A stretch of DNA of 64,000 bases, taken from a virus. Every line of letters starts with the position of its first letter. The first letter of the stretch is position 1. Position numbers and translations under genes: made by a program. Under the pieces are notes generated by a model, which was given only the letters and a program-made list of their open reading frames with translations, did no database searches and was not told where the DNA came from. The stretch spans positions 64,001-128,000 of IMG/VR virus record IMGVR_UViG_3300044681_000369; one strand, given 5' to 3'. Positions 14,682-29,473 of the stretch are shown here, one piece after another.

Positions 14682-14690
14682 TAGGGACCT

Positions 14691-14721
14691 TATAAATTAT
14701 ATGGTGTTTGAGTTATTTATA
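14691..14721. promoter_or_regulatory. Back-to-back late promoters: TATAAATT (+, 14691-14698) toward the GT cluster and TATAAATA (-, 14714-14721) toward the fibre genes
   Basis: Both motifs lie in the 54-bp divergent intergenic region. Confidence 0.65.
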
Positions 14722-14735
14722 ATTGGGAAAATATC

Positions 14736-15422
14736 ATGAAGACCATTTTAATGCTAAAATATGGCACAAAATACTCTAAAATAGATGTTGATAGAATTAT
14801 TTCTGCCACCGGCGGAAAGTATCATTATGCTTGTATAACTGATGATCCAGATCTAGACCCTAGAGTCCAGATAATCCCTATTCCAGATGATATAGACGGA
14901 ACATTCCGCAAGATTTGGATGTACAGTCTGGAAAATCTGGGTGATATACTGTATTTAGACTTGGACGTTCGTATACAAAAAGATATCGATCACCTATGGA
15001 AATATATTGACAATACACCAACAATAGTGTATACTTATTGGAAAGATGTGGGTTTTGTAGATCAACCGCATAGTGGTTACAGTATGCAGTATCTAAGCAA
15101 CTACAACTCTAGTGCAGTCCTCTGGAAATCTGGATCTCCTGACGCTAAAATTATATGGGAAAAATTTTCCGAAGACCCAGATTACTATCAAATTAAGTAT
15201 TGGGGAGACGATAGATTTCTTTGGCACGAAGGATTCAAATTTAAATGGTTTCCAAAAGGCGAGTTCTACTCTTTTCTATATGGAGCAGACTTCTATGTTC
15301 CAGAGTTGAAGACATGTGATCGATATCGACCAGAATATACAATAGCACTATTAAACGGATTGGACTTATACCCGGAGCACGACAAATTATATGATGATCT
15401 TTCTAACAATAAAATGGGGTAA
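14736..15422 (+). CDS. Glycosyltransferase, GT-A fold (paralog 1)
   Basis: KYGTKY N-terminal motif, C.TDD, DxD motif YLDLDV, YNSSAVLW, GDDRF. Confidence 0.8.
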   Translation: MKTILMLKYGTKYSKIDVDRIISATGGKYHYACITDDPDLDPRVQIIPIPDDIDGTFRKIWMYSLENLGDILYLDLDVRIQKDIDHLWKYIDNTPTIVYTYWKDVGFVDQPHSGYSMQYLSNYNSSAVLWKSGSPDAKIIWEKFSEDPDYYQIKYWGDDRFLWHEGFKFKWFPKGEFYSFLYGADFYVPELKTCDRYRPEYTIALLNGLDLYPEHDKLYDDLSNNKMG

Positions 15423-16167
15423 GAAATACCCAGCCAAGTATGTAAACAATCTATACAACATGGTAAAGAGAAACTATGTTGGAGACTTTAGATTTGTATG
15501 TTACACGGATGATCCTCAACGAATCAATAAAGAAATTGAAGTCGTTCCTATTCCAGATGACGGACTACTTCATCCAAAATACTACTTTGGTAAAGAAGAT
15601 TATTGCTTTGACCGAGCAAAATTCCTAGTATTCAACTCTGAAGAGTGGCTTGAAAATGTGTCTTTCGTGGACACATTTTGCTACTTCGATCTGGATGTTG
15701 TAATTCAAGGCGACATTAGCATTATCGATGATCTGGCACAAAAGCCCAGACTAATTCATTGCTTTTGGCAAAAACCAGGCTACGACAAAGATGATAGATT
15801 TTTTATCGATACTCGAGGAACATACTACAACTCAAGTATGATGCTTTGGTCTTATCGTCAATGCAGTCATATATACTACGATGTCTTCGAAAACAGAGAC
15901 ATCATTTTTAAGACCTTCTTCAAAGGCTCAGACAACTATCACTACTGGAGACAAAAGAACTTCTGGAAAAATATTCCAGAAACTTGGTGTTATTCTTGGA
16001 ACAGAGGTCGATATTATCCAGAAGATGTAGAAGCATTTAAGTTTAGACCAGATGCCGCAATCTGTTTATTCAATACGGATAATGTTCCAGATCCTGTGTC
16101 AAAAACTCACACAGAGTTAGACAAGTGTAAAGACAAAAACATCAAAAAATTATGGACGGCAAAATGA
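15391..16167 (+). CDS. Glycosyltransferase, GT-A fold (paralog 2)
   Basis: KWGKKY, CYTDD, YFDLDVVI, YNSSMMLW, GSDNY. Confidence 0.8.
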   Translation: MMIFLTIKWGKKYPAKYVNNLYNMVKRNYVGDFRFVCYTDDPQRINKEIEVVPIPDDGLLHPKYYFGKEDYCFDRAKFLVFNSEEWLENVSFVDTFCYFDLDVVIQGDISIIDDLAQKPRLIHCFWQKPGYDKDDRFFIDTRGTYYNSSMMLWSYRQCSHIYYDVFENRDIIFKTFFKGSDNYHYWRQKNFWKNIPETWCYSWNRGRYYPEDVEAFKFRPDAAICLFNTDNVPDPVSKTHTELDKCKDKNIKKLWTAK

Positions 16168-16991
16168 GAGTTAATTATATCTGTTGCAAATGGGGAACAA
16201 AATATGGTCCCGAGTTTGTCAATCGACTAAATCGGATGGCTAGACTAAACACGCCAGACAAATATGATGTACATTTCTATTGTTATACCGATGATGCTAA
16301 GGGACTAGACGAGAATATTACTCATATTGATTTTCCAGATATTCCAGAAATTCACCCTAAGTATTGGTTTGGATCTGATAACTTCAAGTATGGTATGGCT
16401 CGTTGCTGGGACAGACCAAAAACGATGATATTCAACACTCACAATTTTGCTCCAGACAAACCTACTGGCAAATTTATCTTTTTTGATTTGGACGTAATCA
16501 TCCAAAGTGATCTAACTCCGATAATTGAGTATGATTATGATAATCCTCGAAAGTTGCGCTCTTGGTGGCAAGATCCAAGACCTATGAAGACTAGACAATT
16601 CAAACTCAGTCACGGAGCATACACAAATGGCTCTTGTATGGCATGGATGGATGATCAGACTGAATGTATCTGGCAAGATGTTTTAGAAAATCAAGAGCGT
16701 ATATGGTTTACGTTCACAGATGGAACAGATAACTATCACAGTTGGCGTTGGGGAGATTTTAGACCTGACGGCAAACCACCTTTATGGAAACATTTTCCAA
16801 AAGAATTTGCGTACTCATATAACAGAGGAAGAGATTGGGATTCTAATGACCTAGAAGTAGGTATATATAGAAAAGATGCTATTATTTGTGTGTTCAATGT
16901 GGACTTGCTCCCATTCCAAGATAATAGTCGTGGTAAGGTAAAACAAGCATCGCTAGTTGATCCAGACCTATTAGCGCATTGGGATATATAA
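16164..16991 (+). CDS. Glycosyltransferase, GT-A fold (paralog 3)
   Basis: KWGTKY, CYTDD, FFDLDVII, NGSCMAW, GTDNY. ATGA overlap with the upstream stop places the start at 16164. Confidence 0.8.
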   Translation: MRVNYICCKWGTKYGPEFVNRLNRMARLNTPDKYDVHFYCYTDDAKGLDENITHIDFPDIPEIHPKYWFGSDNFKYGMARCWDRPKTMIFNTHNFAPDKPTGKFIFFDLDVIIQSDLTPIIEYDYDNPRKLRSWWQDPRPMKTRQFKLSHGAYTNGSCMAWMDDQTECIWQDVLENQERIWFTFTDGTDNYHSWRWGDFRPDGKPPLWKHFPKEFAYSYNRGRDWDSNDLEVGIYRKDAIICVFNVDLLPFQDNSRGKVKQASLVDPDLLAHWDI

Positions 16992-16992
16992 A

Positions 16993-17676
16993 ATGATTAA
17001 CATTTATACAGTAAAGTGGGGACAGAAGTATGGTCCCGAAGCAGTAAACGCAATTCATGACCAATGTAAAAAATACATTACCGAAGAATTTGATTTTTAT
17101 TGCTTGACAGAATATCCTCACGATTTAAATCCGGATATTCTTGTTATTGATTTCCCAAAAGGAAATTACTATGAGAAATGGTGGAACAAACTCCATCTAT
17201 TTGACCCAAACGTTGTTTCTCAAAAAGGCGAAAAGTTATTTTTCGATTTGGATGTGCAGATACAATCGAATATTGATTGTATTGTAAACTACGATCCCGG
17301 GGATAAACTTACCTTTGTTAGAACATGCTGGCACAATTTGAAAAAAATGAAGCGAGATGTTAAAGATATTCCTTGGGCATATACTGAGCTAAACTCTTCC
17401 GTTTTACGCTGGAACGACATGTTTGACGGAAAGAAAATCACAAAGTTTGTTAAAGATTATCCTTCTCAAATGTTTTTCTACTATCGCGGTCTAGATAATC
17501 TTTTTGGTCATCAACGTGAAAGGCTGTTAAAGATTGATCATTTTCCAGACGGCTGGGTATACAGTTATAATAACGGCTATATATGGCCAACAGATGTGAG
17601 AAAGCACACCCTAAGAGAAGATCCGCTAATTTGTTTGTATGATTCTATGGAGCGACCAGAAGATGTTAAGCTATAA
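16993..17676 (+). CDS. Glycosyltransferase, GT-A fold (paralog 4)
   Basis: KWGQKY, WWNKLHLF, FFDLDV, NSSVLRW, GLDN. Confidence 0.8.
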   Translation: MINIYTVKWGQKYGPEAVNAIHDQCKKYITEEFDFYCLTEYPHDLNPDILVIDFPKGNYYEKWWNKLHLFDPNVVSQKGEKLFFDLDVQIQSNIDCIVNYDPGDKLTFVRTCWHNLKKMKRDVKDIPWAYTELNSSVLRWNDMFDGKKITKFVKDYPSQMFFYYRGLDNLFGHQRERLLKIDHFPDGWVYSYNNGYIWPTDVRKHTLREDPLICLYDSMERPEDVKL

Positions 17677-18319
17677 CTTTTTGAATAATTATCGAAATTG
17701 GGGCGATGGCCTCGATAAGATTAGCCACGAAATGCCTTGGAAACATGAAGACTTTAGAAAGTCTTTGAATCCAAATACTATGGAAGCCGCAATCTGGTTG
17801 GTAGAAGAACTAAAGCCACTTTTGCCTAAAAATAAAGGACTAGATATTACTGTTCTTAATTCCTGGCTTGGTTTTCCTTTAGTTCCACTTCTTTGTGAAA
17901 ATCTTTCAATAACTAAAATCAACCTTATTGATGTTGATAATGATGCACTTGAGTTATCCAAAGTTTTTAATAGGTATTATGTCGAACAGGGTATTGATTT
18001 AAATCATATTAATTGGGATATACCTTTTGCATATCATGATATTAATGCCCTTGAAACAGATGTTGTCATCTCTATGTGTGCAGAAACCATGTATCCACTT
18101 AGAGAAATGACCACCGCAAACAAAAAGTGTATCTTTGCATGTCAATCTTCAAACGTGTTTAAAGAAATGTATGGCATAAATTGTGTGCCTACAATAGAAG
18201 CACACATTGAAAATGTAGGTATTAAGACTGCAAAGTATACCGGAGAGATTAAGCAGTTTTATTACAGCTTTGATGGTAAAACCGAATTTGATCGTTTTAT
18301 GGCAATAGGAACAAAATAA
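17663..18319 (+). CDS. Class I SAM-dependent methyltransferase-like protein (degenerate motif I)
   Basis: ITVLNSWLG / LIDVD / DVVISMCAE / RFMAIG pattern of a Rossmann-fold MTase. Start at 17663 overlaps the upstream gene. Confidence 0.6.
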   Translation: MLSYNFLNNYRNWGDGLDKISHEMPWKHEDFRKSLNPNTMEAAIWLVEELKPLLPKNKGLDITVLNSWLGFPLVPLLCENLSITKINLIDVDNDALELSKVFNRYYVEQGIDLNHINWDIPFAYHDINALETDVVISMCAETMYPLREMTTANKKCIFACQSSNVFKEMYGINCVPTIEAHIENVGIKTAKYTGEIKQFYYSFDGKTEFDRFMAIGTK

Positions 18320-18320
18320 C

Positions 18321-19259
18321 ATGGGCAGAGTAAGAATTGTTGCACCACCTCCAGAAAACTTTATTCCTGTTCCGCTTGAGCAGACTCACGTATCCATTGA
18401 TGTAAACAACGATGGAGTAATTGATGTGAAAGATGAGATTGAATTAAAGCAAGACGAAGAATCTAGACTAAAACTAGAAGAAGAGATCAAAAGAAAGGAT
18501 GAAATTGCAAAGCAAATTCATCAAGACTTGCTAAAGAAAAAGAAGTTGGATGAAAAAAAGAAACTCCGGGCTGAAAAAGCGGCAACAAAAACTATATTGG
18601 CAACCAGAGAAAACTCTCAGCTTAAAGCAATTCTAAAGAAGAAAGATATTCAGATTGAAGAATTGCTCACAAAAATCTCGTCAATCGAAAGTTCTATTTC
18701 AGAAACTGCCTTAAAGCAAGAAGGCGCAATTGATCTAATGCGCAAAGAAATCTCTCTAATGAGAGAACAGAAGCTGGCAGCCGAAAAGGCTAGAGATGAA
18801 ACACTAATGAAATACCGTGAGCAATCTGTCGGACAATCTCAATTGAGAACCAAAGAATCTGCCAGAATTGTAGAACTAGAAACTGAACTAAAAGAAACCA
18901 AAGCAAAAATTCAAGTGGCTAGAGAAGAGGCATTACTGATCTTTAGAGAAGAACAGAGTCGAAAAAAAGAAACTCAGATCCGAGCCGCACAAGATTTGAA
19001 GATACAAAACATCAAGTCATCGTCAACCTGGTGGTCAAATTTTGTAGCTTTTGTAAAGCGCAAAAAGATTGAGTTGTCTATGGCAGGAATTACAAATTAT
19101 GAGGCGGCAGTTATTGTCCGAACAAAATTTGCAATTCCAAAAATGTTAGATGACATTGAGAGAATGCATGAGCAACTGGCAATCTTGGAAGAAATGATTG
19201 CTATGCTTGAAAAGAATAAGTCTAAGTCTCAGAAAGAGAACCAAAGTCCTGCCCAGTAA
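18321..19259 (+). CDS. Long coiled-coil protein with N-terminal DxNxDG Ca-binding-like loop
   Basis: E/K-rich heptads over ~200 aa; DVNNDGVIDVKD. Confidence 0.65.
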   Translation: MGRVRIVAPPPENFIPVPLEQTHVSIDVNNDGVIDVKDEIELKQDEESRLKLEEEIKRKDEIAKQIHQDLLKKKKLDEKKKLRAEKAATKTILATRENSQLKAILKKKDIQIEELLTKISSIESSISETALKQEGAIDLMRKEISLMREQKLAAEKARDETLMKYREQSVGQSQLRTKESARIVELETELKETKAKIQVAREEALLIFREEQSRKKETQIRAAQDLKIQNIKSSSTWWSNFVAFVKRKKIELSMAGITNYEAAVIVRTKFAIPKMLDDIERMHEQLAILEEMIAMLEKNKSKSQKENQSPAQ

Positions 19260-19878
19260 TATCTTCAATCATCATTTTCCAGAAACTCTCATCTGGAATA
19301 ACATAGCCTAATGTAATTCTTTTACTCTTGGAACCGGCACAGTGATACCACACTTTGTCGGTTTCACTTCTTCTGCCAAAATAGCCCACTTTAACTGACC
19401 ATCCTTTAGGATCCAAAAGAGTTACCATTTCTTTGGTAATAGGATCACGATACCTAAAATAACCAGCTTCAGCTTCTGGGTTGTATGTTAAAAGAATGTT
19501 ATATCCAGAAGCATTCCAGTTTGTGTGCCAGCCCATAAATCCGCCTTCTGGATAATAGACATGTACCGCGTTTGTCTTTGCACCCAAGAACGAGATTAAT
19601 TCTCTATTCAATAGACGTTGCTTTTCTCTGTGTGCTTCTGGTATACCTGGAGTTAAACTAATATCACAACAATATGCGACTTCAGGAAATCCAACGTGAT
19701 CTCCATCTTTTTTAACTATATGATCTAGGTACTCTTTGTTAGTTGCAGATTCCATAGTATGTCCATGGACTCTATCTGGTTCTTTTAGCTTTGCGTGATC
19801 CGTCTGAGAGAAAAACCAATCTGTATAAGGAGTAACGATATCTAAAAGCTCATCGCTAATTGTATTTGTAAACTTCAT
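19222..19878 (-). CDS. 2OG-Fe(II) oxygenase-like (double-stranded beta-helix) protein
   Basis: YYPEGGFMGWHTN ... WYHCA ... RITLG: two His plus a distal Arg; HxN in place of HxD. Confidence 0.7.
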   Translation of the reverse strand: MKFTNTISDELLDIVTPYTDWFFSQTDHAKLKEPDRVHGHTMESATNKEYLDHIVKKDGDHVGFPEVAYCCDISLTPGIPEAHREKQRLLNRELISFLGAKTNAVHVYYPEGGFMGWHTNWNASGYNILLTYNPEAEAGYFRYRDPITKEMVTLLDPKGWSVKVGYFGRRSETDKVWYHCAGSKSKRITLGYVIPDESFWKMMIEDITGQDFGSLSET

Positions 19879-19881
19879 GTA

Positions 19882-20604
19882 TTATGCGTTCCTTATGGAC
19901 GGCGGCAAAGTATAGTGATGAATAATTTTAGGTTGACCTTTTAATTCTTCTTCTTTGTATCCGATAACAAAGTTCCAACGTGCGTCTGGATCAGGAAATC
20001 TTCCAGTCTTAACTCCCATGTTACCGTAAGTCAATAGACGCCACATTGTAAAGGTGTCCCATTCCAGTGCTTCTTTTGGATAATGTTCGTGATCGTATCC
20101 AGGTTCCTGTTGCTTTAGATACTCACCCCACCAAGCACTCATTAAATTGATTGTTTTTGGATTATGTCTGTAAACAAATAGTCCACAATGCTCTGTCATC
20201 TCTTCTGTGTTTGACAGCTTTGTGATTGCCGCGTTATATGGACGATTTGCTGTAAAGATAATATCAACGTTTTTTGGAATTTGATCGAAAATTGTTGTAA
20301 TATCTTCATGCACAATTTCAGTATCGCAATCCAAATATGCCGTTATATCATATGGAGTTTTGTCTAATGCCCAAAGTTTTGCCCGATGGTGTCTAGGAAC
20401 ACCATCGGTAATGATGTTCTCAAAAATTTCATAGTCTTCATCCTCTACCCACTCTTCATGCGTGAATAGAGTAATTTTAGCTTCAGGAAAATAATCTAAA
20501 AGAGATAACGCTGAATTCTTTGCGGCTAGATAGTAGCCTCTACGAAGAGATGCCACATAAAGAAATCCCTTTTTTACAATATTACCATCATTCTTCTGTC
20601 GCAT
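19882..20604 (-). CDS. Glycosyltransferase, GT-A fold (nucleotide-diphospho-sugar transferase)
   Basis: AKLWALDKTPYDITAYLDCDT (DxD), WDTFTMW, RWN, IIHH. Confidence 0.8.
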   Translation of the reverse strand: MRQKNDGNIVKKGFLYVASLRRGYYLAAKNSALSLLDYFPEAKITLFTHEEWVEDEDYEIFENIITDGVPRHHRAKLWALDKTPYDITAYLDCDTEIVHEDITTIFDQIPKNVDIIFTANRPYNAAITKLSNTEEMTEHCGLFVYRHNPKTINLMSAWWGEYLKQQEPGYDHEHYPKEALEWDTFTMWRLLTYGNMGVKTGRFPDPDARWNFVIGYKEEELKGQPKIIHHYTLPPSIRNA

Positions 20605-21055
20605 TGTCTTCAGCCTGAATCAACATTACTGTATATGCCAAAACTTCGAATGAGTTTTTAGCTCTACGAATTTTAGATTTCAAAGTTTTATTCTTAGACT
20701 GTTTGACTACTGGAATTTCAAAAGCATCCAATTTTGCTTCAAATAGGGCTTCATCTTTACGTCTTTGTTCATCAACTTTGCTACGCTCAATTCTTTCCCT
20801 TACTTCACGATGTCTACGCTCTTCTCTTTGACGAGTGTTTGCATCAATTTCTTCTTCTGTAAACGCCTTCATTATGGCGTCATAGTCCGGATTATTTCCG
20901 CCTTCTCCAGACACAGATGCAGGTAGGCTTTTACCAGTATCTGGATAATACATAATAACCATTACCTGCTTCTGAGCCTTGTTTAGCCAGAAGGGTTCTT
21001 TATATTGTTTTGGAGTTTCCTTTTCAGGAGAGATTTCTACTTCCACTTCAATCAC
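20588..21055 (-). CDS. Hypothetical protein (possible chaperone of the upstream repeat protein)
   Basis: LFEAKLDAFEIPVVKQSKNKTLKSKIRRAK; lies between the repeat protein and the GT. Confidence 0.6.
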   Translation of the reverse strand: MIEVEVEISPEKETPKQYKEPFWLNKAQKQVMVIMYYPDTGKSLPASVSGEGGNNPDYDAIMKAFTEEEIDANTRQREERRHREVRERIERSKVDEQRRKDEALFEAKLDAFEIPVVKQSKNKTLKSKIRRAKNSFEVLAYTVMLIQAEDNATEE

Positions 21056-21096
21056 CTCATTAATGTTAAAATTACATACTATTATATAGTAGAGCC

Positions 21097-21133
21097 TGGA
21101 GGTGACCCCGTAGAGTCACCTCCAAGCATTTTT
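21097..21133. terminator. 10-bp hairpin after the Tyr-repeat gene
   Basis: TGGAGGTGAC-N8-GTCACCTCCA; the T-run is on the + side only. Confidence 0.5.
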
Positions 21134-21137
21134 CATC

Positions 21138-22574
21138 TTAAGCAGTTCTTACCCAAAGAGTTACTGTTGAGACAACATCTTTGTTTGAGACAATGGTGTC
21201 ACCTGCATATGTACCAGAGTAAGAACCTGAGTAAGTTCTTGAGCCAGCGTATGAGCCTGAATAAGTTCTTGAGCCAGAGTATGAGTTTGCATATGTGCCA
21301 GAGTAAGTTCTGCTACCCGCATAGTTTGCGGAATAAGTTCTTGAGCCAGAGTATGAGTTTGCAAAGTACAGTGTGCCTGATGTATATGTGCCGGAATATG
21401 TTCTGCTACCAGCAAAGGAACTAGAAAAGTATTGTGTTGCAGAAACGTATGAGGCAGAATATGTTCTGGTTCCGGCAAAGTTACCGTTTAGATAACCACC
21501 GTAATATCTAGCATATGAGCCAGAATATGTTCTGCTACCAGAATATGGTCTTGTGCCGCCGTATGTTGAAACGTATGAGCCAGAATATGTTCTGCTGCCC
21601 GAATAGTTTCTAGTACCGGCATATGTATTTGCATATGAGTCAGAATATGTTCTGGATCCCGCATACTGAGAGGGGCTTGACGAATATGTTCTCGTACCAC
21701 CATAGGTATTTGTGTATGAAGAGCTATATGATCTTGTACCGCCATAGCTGGTGCTATAAGTTCTAGTGCCACCATATGAGCCAGTATAGTTTTGTGATAT
21801 AACCTGTTCTCTGGTATCCGAAGCGGATCCCATATTTACCCATGTTCCGCCAGAAGGCGTAGATGCTTGCAGTTTGTATGTGCCAACACCAGATGCAATA
21901 ATTCTATTTCTAAAATTAGCAGTCATCTGTTTAATTTCCGCATCAGTCATTGCAGTGACATTATTTCCGGAAACTTTTAGAGGACGCAAATCTGAATTAG
22001 CAGACGAAGTTGCGGCAGTTTTTTGCCAAATGTAGTAGGTTGTATTTCCGCCGTTTGCTACGTCTGTAATCGTATAGCGAGATGTCCATGTGCCACCGGT
22101 TGGTGCTGAACCAGAAAGACGATATTGACCGGCAGTATAATCGGATTCAGTTACCATAGCAGAAATAACTTTATCTAAGATATCTGTGCTAATTTCAGCG
22201 TTTGATAGTTGCTTAATACCACCAGAAACAGTGTCAAAACCAACTGTTCTAGCAGTAATTGATTCCGTGGCTGAAGATGTAACTTGCTTTGCGTAATATG
22301 TTACGGTTGCGGTGGAACCAGTTGCAGGGTGAGTACCAGTTGCTTCTGTTCGATCAGTATCAGAAAATGTACCGATAGATGTTCCAGTGAGTGCGTTTGC
22401 TGTATCAAGATTGATATCTGCTGGATTGCTGCCGTTACTTGCCGCTGTTGCAAAGTCTGTTGTAATTTGACTTGCAATATAGTTTTTTACTTCCGCGTCG
22501 GACATAACCTGCAAACCTTGAAAGTTTGCAGAGGTGATTGGCGAACCAGAAGCCTTTAGTCTTAATGGATTCAT
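21138..22574 (-). CDS. Virion structural protein with long Tyr/Ser/Gly/Thr repeat (YxGxRTYS)
   Basis: About 200 aa of Y(S/A/G)G(S/T)RTYS repeats; lies in the late structural operon. Confidence 0.7.
   Translation of the reverse strand: MNPLRLKASGSPITSANFQGLQVMSDAEVKNYIASQITTDFATAASNGSNPADINLDTANALTGTSIGTFSDTDRTEATGTHPATGSTATVTYYAKQVTSSATESITARTVGFDTVSGGIKQLSNAEISTDILDKVISAMVTESDYTAGQYRLSGSAPTGGTWTSRYTITDVANGGNTTYYIWQKTAATSSANSDLRPLKVSGNNVTAMTDAEIKQMTANFRNRIIASGVGTYKLQASTPSGGTWVNMGSASDTREQVISQNYTGSYGGTRTYSTSYGGTRSYSSSYTNTYGGTRTYSSSPSQYAGSRTYSDSYANTYAGTRNYSGSRTYSGSYVSTYGGTRPYSGSRTYSGSYARYYGGYLNGNFAGTRTYSASYVSATQYFSSSFAGSRTYSGTYTSGTLYFANSYSGSRTYSANYAGSRTYSGTYANSYSGSRTYSGSYAGSRTYSGSYSGTYAGDTIVSNKDVVSTVTLWVRTA
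21200..21790. repeat. Degenerate coding repeats (YAGSRTYSGS)n
   Basis: Repeated gagccagaatatgttct / gagtaagttcttgagcc units. Confidence 0.8.
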
Positions 22575-23070: not shown

Positions 23071-23301
23071 CTACTTACCTTGATTTTTTATGATTTGTTG
23101 CAACATTAATTTTATGTCGATCATTTCTTGCTTAACTGTATTTATATCGGTTTCAATCTCACGCATCCGATTTAGAATACTTTTTTGACTTTCTCGCTTT
23201 GCACGATATTGCTTTAGCCCTTCCAAATCATTAGAAATGATGGCCTTTGAATGCCCATCTCTTAGATATTTAGTTGTATCTTCCAAAGCATATTTCGACA
23301 T
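23071..23301 (-). CDS. Small conserved T4-like protein after the VrlC-like gene
   Basis: LRDGHSKAIIS...IKLMLQQII. Likely start MSKYALED at 23301. Confidence 0.65.
   Translation of the reverse strand: MSKYALEDTTKYLRDGHSKAIISNDLEGLKQYRAKRESQKSILNRMREIETDINTVKQEMIDIKLMLQQIIKNQGK
23139..23146 (-). promoter_or_regulatory. Late promoter TATAAATA (intragenic, serving 22586..23068 and downstream genes)
   Basis: Exact consensus ~70 nt upstream of the next start. Confidence 0.6.
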
Positions 23302-23305
23302 AAAA

Positions 23306-26300
23306 TTATACCTGTAGAGCAATTGCACGAAGTTCCCTGACTTTAGGAACAACGCACTGTTTGGTGGACAACATCACGATTTTAATCGCAAAAATCTTAT
23401 ACCCAGTGTATGTCACTCCGGCATCTGTATATTCATACACACCAGAACCATTCAAGACGCTTGCTGGTAAGTCATATGTGTATTCAGCATAACCAGTTGG
23501 TAACAATTCTGACGGAGGAGTTGTTTCCATCAGGACCCAATCTTTATCCTCAAATGCTTCTGGGTCAGCCTCGTGCTGTAGTCTTGCATATACCTTAACA
23601 TCTGTTCCAGATGGAAGATTATTTGTCAAGTAAACTCGCAGGTCTTCGGCTTCTTGTCCATCATCCAATACAACTCTTCTAGAAACATATTTCGATCTTG
23701 CAGATCCAAACCCGGTTTCTTCATCGGTGTCATCATTATTAATATCATTGGCTGTTGCTATCATAGAGCATTTTCTCAAATCAATTACTGGAGAAACAGT
23801 AGAGGTTTGAGTGTACATGCCAACTCTAATCTTAAATGACTTTTCTCCACCAAGATTTTCATATTCATTCGAGAATGATCTAATAGACGCATCATATAGC
23901 AATTCTTCAGGCTTGTCTGCTGTGAAGTTCTCAAAATCTGTACCGGCAGTAGTTTCTGTTCCGGTATTTTCCGTGGCAGAATATGACCAAACCATTCTGC
24001 ATGGTGTATGATTCATATGACCAACGTTTGCAGTGAGTGAATTGATTGCCTTATCTTCAACTTCTACAACTTCTCCGTAAGCGGTACCGTTACCAACAAC
24101 ATCGCTGGCAGAGAATGCGCCTGTTACAACATACAACTTGGCAACATTATACAATGTGTCATAAGTTTGGATTAAACCGGAATTTAATCTAACCGTTGCT
24201 GAGCCGTCTGTGCCACCAGAAATTGTACTGAATGAAATTGTTGGCGCACTTGTGTAGCCTGCTCCTGGATTTGTAACAGTAATGCTTGAAATTTGATTTG
24301 ATGAAACAACAACATCTACAGTTGCATCTGTTGTGGCTCCACCGCCAGACAGTGTAATTGAATGTGTGCCGTTTGTATATCCAGAACCGGCATCATCAAT
24401 AGTAAACGAGAACCCGTGAATAGATTCGCCCACATCAAAGTTTCCGCCTGTAAATTGATCAAAGCGGAGATAATCAATATCTTGAGTTTCCAGTTCGACC
24501 AAACCAACACTGTTGATATCAAAGTCTGCTCTGTTTAGCAGGAACTTCATGTCTTCTGCCTGGTGTGCTGTCCAAGTTCTATTGTTTGCTGAAGTGAATA
24601 GTACACCAACGCTTGGCTGTTCCGTAACTCTTGTTGTTGTGTTTACAACATTTTCACCCAACTCAGATACCCAAACTTCATAGTCTGGAGAGTTACCTTC
24701 AGGCAACAGAACATAGCAATATTCTGTATTGTTCTTTAGATAGACAGGAGAAGGGAATGTAAACCGAGTTCTTGCACCCGCATTGTCAGCGTCAACGTTA
24801 ACTTGCTCTGGTCTTAATGTTACTTCACCAAATGGTAGAATGTTATTTGAAGGATAACCATTCTGAACTTCTCTCAATTCTAATTTAATTGCGGCTGTAT
24901 CTGATTTTGTTCTAAAGAAAACATCAACCGATGTTGCATACATGCCAAAAGGCATATCTTCAACCATAAAGGTCTGAGAGATAGGATCAAAGCCTGGTGT
25001 AAAAGCAAGACCACAATTCCAGTTCCACTGCCAAGCGGTATCCCACCAGAGAGACAGTTCGTCTGCAATCCAAAAATCGTCCCAACAAGCTATGTTAGGA
25101 TTGGGATCCGGAACAGGAGCGGCAGTAGTTGTAGTTGGCGCCGCCGTTGTGGTGGTGGTGGTCGTAGTTGTTGGCGCCGCCGTTGTGGTGGTGGTCGTAG
25201 TTGTAGTGGTTGTAGTTGGCGCCGCCGTTGTGGTGGTCGTAGTTGTTGGCGCCGCCGTAGTTGTAGTTGTTGTTACTCTCGGAGTAGTGGTTTCCGGGTT
25301 AACAGTGGGAACTACAGGCTCATCCGGCGGCGATGGCGGAGGATAAATAATAGTTGTGTTAGTATTATTGACAGTTGTAGTATTATCAACATAGGTATTT
25401 TGAATATTTGTAGTGTTGTTTACTGTAGTATATGTGTTATTTACTACAGTGGTTTGAATACCAACTCTTCTCCCCTCAAGTCTATTGACTGTGGTTTGAG
25501 TATCATATGTAAGTCTAGTATCCGTAAGAGTGTTGGTTGCAATCTTAGCAACTCTAGTAGAAATTACGGTATCTTGAACATTTTGTGCTAAACCGTTTGC
25601 AGAAAATGTTTGACTACAAACTGTAGTTAAGAATTTTTCTCTATTTTGCTCATCATCAGCCAAACGGAAAATCTTTTCGCCAACTCTAAATTGTCCCTGT
25701 GGGATTCTAAATTGTCCCATGGCTCTACCTTCATCGTTAGTGATGATGGCATCACCCCAATCACCATCCGCATAAGATGATGCTTCGACTGAATTGGTAA
25801 AGTTCTGATTCCATGCGCCAGATACTGCAACTGGTCGGCAATGTTCTGACACTGCAATACCATCAAAGAAAGGATATATCCGTGTGTTAGGCTTCATTCT
25901 CTCTGCCTTAAACGTTACGGTTATACTTCTCATGAATGGAATGATTGAAGTATTTGTTACTCTGGCTCCAGTTCTCTGAGTTTGAGTTTCTGGTGTAACA
26001 CTAATTGAAATGCCCTGTCTTGTTTGACGCTGTTCAATTGTAGATGTTACAATTTGCATGTCTGTCTGGAATCCGGTATCGCCTCCACCATAAACGGCGC
26101 TTACCGCATCTGTGGTTTCTGTTGATACAACTCTACCAGTTCCTAAATCTTGCCAGTCGCCCCACTGAGTTCCCCAGGCATCTGCCATCTGTTCCCAGGC
26201 ATCATAGTTTCCATCAAAGTTTGCAGAAACATCGGGAAGAACGCTAGTATCTGTCCAGTTGTCAACCGGAGGATCAAGTTGCATATCACCAATATAATTG

Positions 26301-29300
26301 AAGAGCAACTCACCCACACAATTTCTTGGTTTGGTAGCAAATAGGTTTCTAGTATAATTTACTTCAGTGTATGGCAATGTAATCAAATCGCCAGTCTTTT
26401 GAATATTTGACGAATTTGTAGAATTATACTGAAGATCAACGTTTTCTAAAAAGAAGAACGCACGAAGTTCTTTTTTCTCAGGATCTATAGCTGAGTGATG
26501 TTCAGAACTCTTAACGTTTGCAATATTGTGACCAGTAAAGGCATCAACTAGAATGCCGTTCTTAAATCGATTTAAGCCTGGATCTGCGGCAGAAGGAATT
26601 ACGAGGTCCTTTGCTGCCTTCTCTAAAAGATTTAGAGAACTATAATACTCTAGTCGATTAATTCTCTGTTCTAATACACCAATGTCTCGCATGGTGTATC
26701 TACGATTATCTTGTAATTTATACTTTACGCCCATTTCTGGCTTACCAATTACCTTAGCAACGTTTGGTGCCAAAGATGGATAAGGAGGAATGGTTACAAC
26801 TGCTAATGTCATAGCATTGTCTGGTTCGGCTGCCTCTAATGGAGATAGAGAAGGAACGCCGTAAACTGATGAGAAATTGCCTTCTTCATCAATAACAATT
26901 CTATCTTTTCTACCCATGTAGTATTCGATGTCAGTAATGAACTGCTCTGTAGGAACAGGTACAATTACTGCGCCACCTTGAGGACCACTCAAAGTAGATG
27001 CATATGCAGGGTTTGTATTTGATGGATCTGATTCGGCAGTAGAAACATTTGTGTAGTATGAAATTTCGTTATCATACCTTGGTCTAAAGTCTAATGTATC
27101 TCTTAGATCGTAAGAGCTACCAGAAACCGTTGAGGTAAAGATAGGAATCTCATACGTTTTTAGTGTACCTGCCGCACCAGTTTCGTCATCTACTGGATAT
27201 GAATCCACGGTGTAGAAGTTATAGTTTGTAACTGGAGAACCGTTGTGTTCAAAATAATCAAAAACAACAACAAGTTTTGAATCAGTTAAATTCAGAGATG
27301 ATGTTGGTTTCTTGATGATTCTGCAATTTGCATAGAAATTGTCTCTTTGCCCATTGTCAAAAGTAAACTGATCTTTTACATCATCTCCCAAAGCAACAAC
27401 ATCTGCCGCAGTCTCATCGTACGGTCCAACATAAACGTGTTTTAGTTGCCAACCGTCTGACGCACCTAAACTATATGTGCCTGAGGTGTCGCCACTAGTA
27501 TTAGTGTTAATGATAACAACGGCATCTTCCTTCATAACCTTAGTTACAGGATCAGCGTTTGCAACATGTACCTTAACGAGTACCTGAACTGTTGCCGCTG
27601 TTGCTCCAGCACTACCAGGAAGATTAATTGTTAACTGTGTGCCTGTGTTGCTAACGCTAAATCCAGAAGCACTCAAATCTAGAATAGAACCGGCTGGATA
27701 AGAAGTGCCCTCAATGGTTGCAGCCTGTGTTAGAGTTACAACAACATTGTCTAGTGCTTCAGTATCACTTAATGTAGGAATTGAAAACGGAAAACTTTCA
27801 CTTCCTGAAACGCCAACTGTAATCGAATTTGTTGATGTTGAAATTGATCCAGAAAGTTGTTTTGTGTAGTCAAAACTATTGTCTTGCGCAAGATTTGGCT
27901 TTGTTGTTTTTGTTGCTTTTGACGGAAGTCTAAACAACAACCTATTAAATTTTGTCTCTTTTAATACTGCTATACCAGACTCTAAAACTAGGTCTGCGTG
28001 GCCATCGGCTGTTGTATTATAGTACAACGCTCGGACAGAATCAAAATTTTGACCAGAATTAATTTTGATGTCATAGAGATAAACTCTATACTGTGCTGCC
28101 GCATTGCCTGGTGTACCAGAACTGTACTGAACGTAACGAACTTTTGCTGTACCAATTTCGCTACCACCGGCAGCTGTTGATGACAAGGTTCCAGACGTAA
28201 CTGCATTTGTTGCGGCGCTTCTTAAAGATACTGTGCCGCCACCAGCAACATCCCATGAACCGCAGAAATCATCAACGATAACATAGTTACCGTAAGACGT
28301 TGCTACAGAATTCTCTTGAATTGTTCTTGTGGTTAATCCTTTTGGTACAATAATGTATTCGGTTTTATATGTTTCGGCTAAATAACCGCGAACATATGCT
28401 TTACCTGGCTCAATACCAATGGCAAGCAATTCTTCATTGCCTCCCATATTTGGATCATCTGAATTATATGGCAGTAAACCAGAATTTGTGCCATCATCTA
28501 GATGTTCCAAAATTCTGATAGGAAATGGTTTTACTGAATAGTTGCCAGACTCATCGTATGTTCTCTTTGCAATATTCTTGCCAAGAAGAGCATAGATTTT
28601 ATCTTCAGTCTGAGTTGTGTATAATGAACCCGCTTTAATTTCAATATATTGCTGGAAGTCTTCAGATACTTGATCGTTTCTTCCATATTTTACCAAAGAT
28701 GCTGTTGACAAATATCTGTCTGCACCAGGCGCGGCAAAGTTAAATGTTCCTTGCGCTGGATCAAGTAGTGTTTGATCTTCTTCGGCATTTACAATATTTT
28801 CAATTAATTCAAAACCAATCTTATATGTAGGAAGATTACTATATGGATCAAGAATCATCGTTTCTTTTGTAAACTCGACAAATTTGCCGTCAAGATATAC
28901 AATACCATCATTGACGGTAACAAAAGAACCAAGACCTCTATATGCCTGATCGCCAGGAACTAAGCTATCGTTAGCAACAAATGTGTCGCCAATTAGAGTG
29001 ACATCTTCTGCATCTGTAACCAAAAGAACTTCGCTTGGTTCAAAATATGAATTTGAAGTTTCGCCGTCACCAGAAATATATCTCAAATATAATGTGTTTA
29101 AGAATGGTGCAGTTGTCTGAGAACCAGAAAGCACATTTACTACTAGTGCGGTGATCCCAGATGTTTGTCCTGTTACCGTGCATCCAACATATCTGTTTAA
29201 GTCAGATAGTGTTAGTCCAGATGCGTCTAAGTCATTGATTTTAATGAAGTTTGCGTTAACATCTAGCTGAAATTCGCAGCCAGCAATAACGGCACCATTC

Positions 29301-29473
29301 TTAAATACATGATTACCAAATTTGCCAATCTGGTCCTGAAGTAAGGTTTGAAGTTGCGTTAGTTCTCTAGCCTGAACTGCATAGCCAGGCTTAAAGAGTA
29401 GCTTTGTATATTTTTTTGCAATCGCATCTTCCGAATTATCGAAATATGGAGATACATTTAGGTCAAGTGCCAT
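23306..29473 (-). CDS. Large baseplate-associated structural protein (VrlC/DUF4815-like)
   Basis: LNVSPYFD, LFKPGYAVQARELTQLQ, APGADR, RYTMRDIG.LE.RI..LEYY, RFKNGILVD.F, DPISQTF, C-terminal ELRAIAL. Confidence 0.85.
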   Translation of the reverse strand: MALDLNVSPYFDNSEDAIAKKYTKLLFKPGYAVQARELTQLQTLLQDQIGKFGNHVFKNGAVIAGCEFQLDVNANFIKINDLDASGLTLSDLNRYVGCTVTGQTSGITALVVNVLSGSQTTAPFLNTLYLRYISGDGETSNSYFEPSEVLLVTDAEDVTLIGDTFVANDSLVPGDQAYRGLGSFVTVNDGIVYLDGKFVEFTKETMILDPYSNLPTYKIGFELIENIVNAEEDQTLLDPAQGTFNFAAPGADRYLSTASLVKYGRNDQVSEDFQQYIEIKAGSLYTTQTEDKIYALLGKNIAKRTYDESGNYSVKPFPIRILEHLDDGTNSGLLPYNSDDPNMGGNEELLAIGIEPGKAYVRGYLAETYKTEYIIVPKGLTTRTIQENSVATSYGNYVIVDDFCGSWDVAGGGTVSLRSAATNAVTSGTLSSTAAGGSEIGTAKVRYVQYSSGTPGNAAAQYRVYLYDIKINSGQNFDSVRALYYNTTADGHADLVLESGIAVLKETKFNRLLFRLPSKATKTTKPNLAQDNSFDYTKQLSGSISTSTNSITVGVSGSESFPFSIPTLSDTEALDNVVVTLTQAATIEGTSYPAGSILDLSASGFSVSNTGTQLTINLPGSAGATAATVQVLVKVHVANADPVTKVMKEDAVVIINTNTSGDTSGTYSLGASDGWQLKHVYVGPYDETAADVVALGDDVKDQFTFDNGQRDNFYANCRIIKKPTSSLNLTDSKLVVVFDYFEHNGSPVTNYNFYTVDSYPVDDETGAAGTLKTYEIPIFTSTVSGSSYDLRDTLDFRPRYDNEISYYTNVSTAESDPSNTNPAYASTLSGPQGGAVIVPVPTEQFITDIEYYMGRKDRIVIDEEGNFSSVYGVPSLSPLEAAEPDNAMTLAVVTIPPYPSLAPNVAKVIGKPEMGVKYKLQDNRRYTMRDIGVLEQRINRLEYYSSLNLLEKAAKDLVIPSAADPGLNRFKNGILVDAFTGHNIANVKSSEHHSAIDPEKKELRAFFFLENVDLQYNSTNSSNIQKTGDLITLPYTEVNYTRNLFATKPRNCVGELLFNYIGDMQLDPPVDNWTDTSVLPDVSANFDGNYDAWEQMADAWGTQWGDWQDLGTGRVVSTETTDAVSAVYGGGDTGFQTDMQIVTSTIEQRQTRQGISISVTPETQTQRTGARVTNTSIIPFMRSITVTFKAERMKPNTRIYPFFDGIAVSEHCRPVAVSGAWNQNFTNSVEASSYADGDWGDAIITNDEGRAMGQFRIPQGQFRVGEKIFRLADDEQNREKFLTTVCSQTFSANGLAQNVQDTVISTRVAKIATNTLTDTRLTYDTQTTVNRLEGRRVGIQTTVVNNTYTTVNNTTNIQNTYVDNTTTVNNTNTTIIYPPPSPPDEPVVPTVNPETTTPRVTTTTTTAAPTTTTTTTAAPTTTTTTTTTTTTAAPTTTTTTTTTAAPTTTTAAPVPDPNPNIACWDDFWIADELSLWWDTAWQWNWNCGLAFTPGFDPISQTFMVEDMPFGMYATSVDVFFRTKSDTAAIKLELREVQNGYPSNNILPFGEVTLRPEQVNVDADNAGARTRFTFPSPVYLKNNTEYCYVLLPEGNSPDYEVWVSELGENVVNTTTRVTEQPSVGVLFTSANNRTWTAHQAEDMKFLLNRADFDINSVGLVELETQDIDYLRFDQFTGGNFDVGESIHGFSFTIDDAGSGYTNGTHSITLSGGGATTDATVDVVVSSNQISSITVTNPGAGYTSAPTISFSTISGGTDGSATVRLNSGLIQTYDTLYNVAKLYVVTGAFSASDVVGNGTAYGEVVEVEDKAINSLTANVGHMNHTPCRMVWSYSATENTGTETTAGTDFENFTADKPEELLYDASIRSFSNEYENLGGEKSFKIRVGMYTQTSTVSPVIDLRKCSMIATANDINNDDTDEETGFGSARSKYVSRRVVLDDGQEAEDLRVYLTNNLPSGTDVKVYARLQHEADPEAFEDKDWVLMETTPPSELLPTGYAEYTYDLPASVLNGSGVYEYTDAGVTYTGYKIFAIKIVMLSTKQCVVPKVRELRAIALQV
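25110..25345. repeat. Low-complexity Thr/Pro tract, (AAPTTTTTTT)n
   Basis: Repeated gttggcgccgccgttgtggtggt units. Confidence 0.9.

Follow-up and report, generated by a model that had tools for sequence, protein, structure and literature searches.

A candidate fibre-maturation cassette of glycosyltransferase-like and oxygenase-like genes beside a Tyr-rich repeat fibre gene in an aquatic T4-like phage

Layout of the locus

We analysed 64 kb of viral DNA (the window, by which we mean the whole stretch from base 64001 to base 128000 of the 140,970-bp IMG/VR virus record IMGVR_UViG_3300044681_000369, completeness estimate 86%) and focused on a group of genes in which putative glycosyltransferases (GTs) and a protein with the predicted fold of 2-oxoglutarate (2OG) oxygenases lie beside the gene of a Tyr-rich repeat fibre. 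The phage is a T4-like myovirus, its portal, sheath, large terminase, neck and baseplate-wedge genes all being recognised, and near-identical DNA is contained in freshwater-labelled and partly marine-labelled metagenome runs. A first reading of this DNA (the original prediction) had proposed a virion hydroxylation and glycosylation system encoded by two convergent operons within the structural module. The open reading frames (ORFs) and coordinates of both operons were confirmed (Table 1), and the enzyme genes are indeed found inside the fibre module, in the region flanked by the VrlC-like gene and the neck genes, which passages of PMC7029224 describe as the "host recognition cluster". Note that the two operons share 38 nucleotides (nt) at their 3' ends (19222-19259), which leaves no room for a terminator between them.

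Table 1. Features of the locus, with positions in the window (aa, amino acids; AF2, AlphaFold2; pLDDT, predicted local distance difference test)
Feature	Position	Strand	Evidence or remark
Tail-fibre-assembly-like gene, 109 aa	14352..14681	-	PHROG 1084 E 2e-27; PHROG 3304 'L-shaped tail fiber protein assembly' E 1e-22
Divergent spacer, 54 nt	14682..14735	.	TATAAATT 14691-14698 (+), TATAAATA 14714-14721 (-)
GT8-like glycosyltransferase paralog 1, 228 aa	14736..15422	+	PHROG 1962 E 1e-9; Pfam GT8 19.6 bits
GT8-like paralog 2, 258 aa	15391..16167	+	blastp paralogy, DLD motif
GT8-like paralog 3, 279 aa	16152..16991	+	Paralogy, DLD motif; ESM Atlas neighbours
GT8-like paralog 4, 227 aa	16993..17676	+	Paralogy, DLD motif
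Rossmann / methyltransferase-like protein, 226 aa	17639..18319	+	Assignment weak
Charged coiled-coil-like protein, 312 aa	18321..19259	+	Proline-free residues 19-272, 37% charged, heptad-compatible
Prolyl-hydroxylase-like double-stranded beta-helix protein (oxygenase-like), 218 aa	19222..19878	-	AF2 pLDDT 94.5
GT8-like GT-A glycosyltransferase (core GT), 240 aa	19882..20604	-	AF2 pLDDT 91.7; D92-x-D94
Small charged, probably helical protein, 155 aa	20588..21055	-	17-nt overlap with GT gene
GC-rich hairpin, 10-bp stem, just past fibre gene stop	21097..21124	.	Sigma-70-like promoter at this position in many relatives
Tyr/Ser/Thr/Gly-repeat fibre-like protein, 478 aa	21138..22574	-	14 G-[ST]-R-x-Y-S units
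Fibre-piece-like protein, 160 aa	22586..23068	-	Match in 59/80 loci; no family hit
93-codon ORF with exact TATAAATA (23139-23146, -)	23071..23352	-	Weak conservation, 41/80 loci
DUF4815 (VrlC-like) virion protein, 2055 aa; bounds region	23306..29473	-	Pfam DUF4815 E 5e-55

The Tyr/Ser/Thr-repeat structural protein expected in the minus-strand operon is present, and its gene is the only ORF of the window picked out by our repeat criterion. The protein consists of two related N-terminal domains of ~125 aa followed by a stretch of ~200 residues in which aromatic-[ST]-G units recur every 4 to 6 positions; this [YF]-[ST]-G repeat is broken once, centrally, by YYGGY, and a conserved C-terminal strand ends LW-x-R-T-A. 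Among relatives the repeat units are constant only in their aromatic, hydroxyl and Gly residues, while Arg, Lys, Asn and Pro recur in the repeats of some lineages, none of them universally.

The core GT is confidently predicted to have a GT-A fold and to be a GT8-like, retaining-type enzyme. Foldseek, run on the predicted structure, matched it to glycogenin (E 2e-10) and also to UGGT, LgtC and Skp1 AgtA. In VIA, glycogenin was the best structural match (Z 17.5, root-mean-square deviation 2.9, 185 residues aligned), pneumococcal GlyE was among the best with Z 16.3, and LARGE1, UGGT and GT6 enzymes superposed as well. All 28 homologs keep both aspartates of the Asp-x-Asp (DxD) motif, D92 and D94. 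The Pfam GT8 cut-off was not reached (best E among the homologs, 7e-4), and single-sequence and profile searches of the PDB with this protein gave no significant match. Thus, the fifth GT-A enzyme of the original prediction was recovered by structure prediction as a glycogenin-like GT-A.

The oxygenase-like protein, encoded directly next to the core GT, was matched by Foldseek to P4H, PHD2 and AlkB at E 3e-5. Prolyl hydroxylases, one from Dictyostelium included, came top in VIA (Z 10.5-9 over 140-160 residues), and the AlkB family scored slightly lower (ALKBH7 9.6 and FTO 9.4, vs 10.5). No Pfam family was hit, and PDB single-sequence and profile searches were without significant match. Among 39 homologs, W117, H118, N120, H179 and R187 are invariant and T189 is present in 37. 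The Arg-x-Thr pair (R187-x-T189) stands eight residues after H179, a position from which it could hold the C5-carboxylate of 2OG, this role being read from position only. By sequence position, H118, H179 and R187 fit the family pattern H-x-[D/E]...H...R-x-[S/T], which makes the two His candidate iron ligands and the Arg the candidate 2OG-binding residue. A second oxygenase gene, elsewhere in the genome and outside the window (G000:C1:2543-2779), scores 34.6 bits with Pfam 2OG-FeII_Oxy_3, above the cut-off.

The genes of the small protein, the core GT and the oxygenase-like protein are overlapping or immediately adjacent, so the three may be translationally coupled. The GTG start listed for the small gene lies within its own likely ribosome-binding site, GAGGTG, and a GTG nine bases downstream looks better. 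A sequence scan found no membrane-span-like segment in any protein of the block; all of them would be soluble and would therefore act in the cytoplasm.

On the plus strand, four tandem ORFs (14736-17676) are mutually paralogous (blastp E 2e-9 to 2e-48, 25-38% identity) and have in common the motifs K-[WY]-G-x-K-Y, an invariant D-L-D-V and N-[SG]-S. For three of them there is a match to PHROG 1962 'glycosyltransferase' (E 1e-6 to 1e-9). The paralogy, the DLD motif and this match bear out the four tandem GTs that had been predicted; for their GT-A fold, a candidate assignment, there are leads at the sequence level. Paralog 1 stays below the cut-off of Pfam Glyco_transf_8 (PF01501, 24.3 bits) and paralogs 2-4 gave no hit, while 12 of 64 members of the paralog family gave Pfam GT8 hits below or near the threshold (best E 2e-5). 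The profile of these 64 members found LgtC, glycogenin and Skp1 AgtA weakly in the PDB (E 0.02-0.8; 0.02-0.6 for LgtC and glycogenin), and Pfam detected no extra domains in ten longer members. Paralog 3, the best conserved of the four, has viral nucleotide-diphospho-sugar transferases as its ESM Atlas neighbours. All this leads to a GT8-like, DxD-containing glycosyltransferase family, which at E <1e-3 comprises 3509 representative clusters.

The two remaining genes of this operon had been called methyltransferase-like and coiled-coil. For the first, the 226-aa Rossmann protein, a conserved gene does exist, with the invariant motifs LNSWLG-P-VP, L-I-D-x-D and N-W-D, yet the methyltransferase label is weak: the position of motif I (Gly-x-Gly-x-Gly) is occupied by the invariant L-N-S-W-L-G, no Pfam family was hit, and PDB single-sequence and profile searches returned nothing significant, spermidine synthase (E 0.34) being the best profile match. 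Methyltransf_31 occurs in 21% of the members of its ESM Atlas neighbour cluster. With such leads, the idea that this protein caps a glycan is doubtful. The second gene fits its label, as its product is heptad-compatible and proline-free over ~250 residues.

Motifs of the T4 late-promoter type face both operons, as had been predicted. The motif at 14691, TATAAATT, agrees with the T4 late consensus at 7 of 8 bases and reads CCTTATAAAT in close relatives; the exact TATAAATA at 23139-23146 (minus strand) is intragenic and lies 71 nt upstream of the 160-aa gene. Both elements of the divergent spacer are kept in close relatives, and the plus-facing one decays in distant ones. The window holds 11 exact copies of TATAAATA, against 4.7 expected by chance on both strands; all 11 are on the minus strand, where most of the recognisable structural genes lie. 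In three relatives TATAAATA is found in the spacer between the fibre gene and the small gene. Late co-expression of the four-paralog operon is plausible from these motifs. The hairpin that follows the fibre gene was considered as a conserved attenuator and rejected, since it is not conserved in relatives.

Conservation of the core genes and their linkage to the fibre

We collected two sets of related loci. Clade 1 comprises the 80 nearest IMG/VR loci by oxygenase alignment (49-79% identity). Clade 2 comprises 80 loci found with the oxygenase of phage C48C1 (Kyanoviridae), which is ~32% identical to that of the window. C48C1 is the only cultured phage found with both the core GT and the oxygenase; a literature search found no paper on it. 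Neither megablast of the region nor tblastn with paralogs 1 and 3 gave a match among cultured phages.

The layout with two operons, in the same order and orientation, is seen in 80 of 80 clade 1 loci wherever the contig reaches. Matches to the individual proteins were found in 79 of these 80 loci for the core GT, 71 for the repeat protein, 74-76 for paralogs 1-4 and 77 for the Rossmann protein, which is strongly conserved; the coiled-coil-like protein is poorly conserved, with partial matches in 43. The small-protein gene is kept in 76 of the 80 clade 1 loci and 74 of the 80 clade 2 loci, and the small protein of C48C1 sits at the equivalent position. Within clade 1 conservation is higher in the enzymes than in the fibre (paralog 3, 70-84% identity in relatives, vs 39-67% for the fibre).

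Both clades have a conserved core in the order repeat fibre, small protein, GT, oxygenase-like protein and tail-fibre-assembly-like gene, the last of which closes the cassette. A homolog of the assembly gene follows the oxygenase in 77 of 80 clade 2 loci and also in C48C1. In clade 2 the fibre is a large protein with blocks of [YF]-[ST]-[GR] repeats and the end T-L-Y-V-R-[VT]-A. Some relatives (L141, L144, L152, L157, L160 and L166) have two successive Tyr-repeat fibre genes, each with the end T-L-Y-x-[RK]-x-x, ahead of one small-protein/GT/oxygenase set. Between oxygenase and assembly gene there is a slot that in clade 1 is filled by the inverted four-paralog operon and that in nine clade 2 loci (L146-L151, L153, L161 and L164) holds a single co-directional GT8-like gene, ~700-1900 nt after the oxygenase match.

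The original prediction had proposed to look for co-occurrence of the GT/oxygenase set with the Tyr-repeat gene. Only loci whose contig extends 2.5 kb or more upstream of the oxygenase were counted, and a repeat ORF was scored when it was on the same strand and ended <1.8 kb away. The set proved to be tied to the repeat gene, which was near the oxygenase in 65 of 67 informative loci of clade 1 and 61 of 64 of clade 2. GT genes are linked to a fibre gene, and such linkage is a criterion of virion glycosylation systems. The retention of the cassette over deep divergence argues for a functional unit, because the core order is kept between clades whose oxygenases differ so widely.

The 2055-aa DUF4815/VrlC-like protein offered another candidate substrate, a mucin-like (Thr)n-Ala-Ala-Pro stalk (nt 25115-25273, minus strand). 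This stalk is a recent lineage-specific insert; since it is missing from all 80 related loci it cannot be a conserved target, and it was ruled out.

Weighing the possible functions

We tentatively read these genes as a fibre-maturation cassette of aquatic T4-like (Kyanoviridae-type) phages, devoted to cytoplasmic glycosylation of the fibre, a reading that we favour over the others and hold to be quite possible, if still short of probable. In the cytoplasm, the core GT would attach the first sugar to hydroxyl groups of Ser, Thr or Tyr in the fibre repeats; the four paralogs would lengthen or vary the glycan, with possible modification by the Rossmann protein. The oxygenase-like protein would contribute a further modification of undefined kind, or help in handling the repeat. 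In the original prediction the oxygenase primed the substrate by hydroxylation. This step is doubtful, given the His-x-Asn motif of the enzyme and a repeat without conserved Pro or Lys, and it is unnecessary for O-glycosylation because the repeats already offer abundant hydroxyls.

A bolder version of the fibre-maturation reading, in which the Tyr-rich needle is a glycoprotein with O-linked sugars possibly on tyrosine and the His-x-Asn protein is a new catalytic variant of the 2OG fold that makes a second modification, is in our judgement distinctly unlikely; it would amount to a widespread system by which aquatic T4-like phages decorate their receptor-binding fibres.

Several observations weigh against fibre glycosylation. 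We infer its mechanism from fold, motifs and synteny, so that the glycan on a virion protein is a candidate, and fold similarity does not name the acceptor. Bacterial GT8 enzymes are mostly builders of lipopolysaccharide (LPS). The fibre repeats have no conserved Pro or Lys, the residues that a prolyl-hydroxylase-like protein might lead one to look for being variable among lineages. Moreover, the oxygenase-like protein departs from the feature that defines its family: the His-x-Asp/Glu facial triad is replaced by H118-x-N120...H179, with Asn in 39 of 39 homologs (the C48C1 homolog has H-N-N at the same motif), and a literature search for a His-x-Asn precedent yielded nothing useful. Because His-x-Asn stands in place of His-x-Asp/Glu, oxygenase activity is uncertain, despite the strong constraint on this active-site-like cluster; of the predicted 2OG-Fe(II) oxygenase, the double-stranded beta-helix and the Arg-x-Thr pair stand and the canonical Asp does not. 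Synteny within each clade is inherited, and the linkage counts are few independent observations, not 130.

The timing of expression and the distribution of the paralogs count on the same side. A sigma-70-like element, TTGAC-N17-TAxxxT, lies between the fibre gene and the small gene in ~19 of 51 distinct relatives. Strictly late expression, as originally proposed, is doubtful in view of this element, and late expression of the core enzymes is not established. The element was seen in L036, L057, L061, L067, L070-L075 and other loci. Outside structural modules, a C48C1 relative of the paralogs is found at 100.7 kb among hypothetical genes, and Pelagibacter phage Mosig (MT647606, 124.8-130.7 kb, L167) has a paralog relative in an island beside nrdA/nrdB. 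This Mosig island also contains two methyltransferases, a sulfotransferase and another GT.

These last observations fit remodelling of the host envelope, in which the GT8-like enzymes, with or without the Rossmann protein, would change, from the cytoplasmic side, LPS or some other glycan of the cell surface, so as to block superinfection or keep the progeny off debris, and the fibre neighbourhood would reflect the plasticity of the host recognition cluster. The family members in the glycan-type islands of Mosig and C48C1, the sigma-70-like promoters that precede the core enzymes in many relatives, and the presence of LgtC, a lipooligosaccharide galactosyltransferase, among the best matches all speak for it, and in the relevant passages of PMC7029224 the GT8 genes between VrlC and gp14 of pelagi- and cyanomyophages are read as modifiers of host LPS. 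However, envelope remodelling leaves unexplained why the core GT and the oxygenase are fixed to fibre and assembly genes in two diverged clades, it is not obvious what a prolyl-hydroxylase-like protein would do in LPS synthesis, and no family for sugar-nucleotide synthesis, flippase or polymerase was matched among the block proteins scanned. We consider this alternative unlikely, if by no means far-fetched.

In a non-catalytic alternative, the His-x-Asn protein and the small protein, perhaps with the core GT, would act as chaperones that hold an aggregation-prone Tyr-rich repeat during trimerisation. T4 fibres require dedicated chaperones, gp57A and gp38. The adjacent tail-fibre-assembly-like gene and the loss of the canonical iron-binding Asp in every oxygenase homolog are in line with such a role, but the two His, the Arg-x-Thr pair (T189 in 37/39) and the DxD of the GT show the purifying selection pattern of an active site, and DxD is retained in all five GT copies. 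We hold a non-catalytic role to be quite improbable.

Base-J-type DNA hypermodification, where the oxygenase would hydroxylate a base and the GT-A enzymes glycosylate it stepwise, can draw on AlkB-family scores close to those of prolyl hydroxylases and on the tandem GTs typical of phage DNA glycosylation (PMC13326640), but is very improbable indeed: the genome, 86% complete, yielded no homolog of ThyA, dCMP hydroxymethylase or 5hoC synthase (for ThyA, PF00303, the search controls worked), the DNA GTs of PMC13326640 are modelled on the GT-B type and lie beside nucleotide kinases and sugar-nucleotide genes, none of which occur here, and the cassette adjoins a fibre gene, not replication genes. 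The low rank that the original prediction gave to DNA as the target is upheld by the missing ThyA-type enzyme and the position beside the fibre; the search with PF12851 (Tet_JBP), whose positive control was silent, carries no weight either way.

Tail fibres determine which cells can be infected. If sugars do cover a fibre of these abundant aquatic phages, host range, protease resistance and recognition by grazers or defences would hinge on enzymes now annotated as hypothetical or as "LPS genes". The published superinfection-exclusion reading of the GT8 genes of the host recognition cluster would then need revision, a second, unrelated case of phage virion glycosylation would stand besides that of the actinophages, and biochemistry would gain a conserved His-x-Asn member of the 2OG-oxygenase fold.

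Comparison with known systems

The layout is uncharacterised, as the original prediction had held, yet GT8 genes had been noticed in this region before. The genes described by Zaragoza-Solas et al. 2020 (PMC7029224) share the region (VrlC-like to neck genes) and the family label with ours, and in the passages concerned the GT8 genes of the host recognition cluster are taken as modifiers of the host O-chain. Those passages make no mention of a fibre/small-protein/GT/oxygenase core, of a His-x-Asn protein or of a four-paralog operon. The markers of pelagimyophages and cyanomyophages, ribosomal protein S21 and psbA, were not found in the 86%-complete genome of our phage.

Pairs of a hydroxylase and a GT provide another comparison. 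Collagen LH3/GLT25D1, Mimivirus L230 and the Skp1 enzymes PhyA/Gnt1/AgtA resemble the cassette in combining a 2OG-oxygenase-fold protein with a GT-A enzyme, and AgtA and prolyl hydroxylases are among the structural matches of the cassette enzymes. The phage differs from these pairs in its repeat, which has neither collagen Gly-X-Y nor conserved Pro or Lys, in the change of the triad Asp to Asn, and in having the oxygenase and the GT on separate proteins.

Glycogenin, a GT8 enzyme and the best structural match of the core GT, glucosylates tyrosine; it modifies itself and so primes glycogen. In the phage, the Tyr-rich candidate acceptor is a separate protein. By analogy, Tyr-O-glycosylation is a possibility in the phage.

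Among phages, the mycobacteriophage systems are the obvious comparison. These actinobacterial siphoviruses reportedly carry glycans on capsid and tail-tube C-termini. In mycobacteriophage virion glycosylation (Freeman et al. 2023, PMC10527164) phage GTs act on the phage's own structural proteins, as would be the case here; as compared by description, those systems are not known to include an oxygenase or a repeat fibre.

The cassette would be a member of none of the systems compared, because its repeat is neither collagen-like nor Ser-only, its triad is altered, and for GT8, 2OG oxygenase and methyltransferase its proteins stay below the Pfam cut-offs. Its function, as far as fold and synteny suggest, would be the virus-encoded decoration of the virus's own structural protein.

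In its working principle the cassette would come closest to the bacterial serine-rich-repeat adhesins, which tandem GT8 enzymes glycosylate step by step in the cytoplasm. In the streptococcal serine-rich-repeat proteins (PsrP, Fap1, GspB; enzymes GlyE and GlyD), a Ser/Thr-rich repeat fibre likewise lies beside tandem cytoplasmic GT-A/GT8 enzymes, and GlyE, as said, ranks high among the structural matches to the core GT. Those systems also feature a GtfA/GtfB priming pair of GT-B fold and accessory Sec export, which were not searched for in the phage. The phage version differs in its Tyr-rich repeat, whose period is 4 to 6, in that an oxygenase-fold protein is added to the set, and in that the carrier is a phage, not a bacterium.

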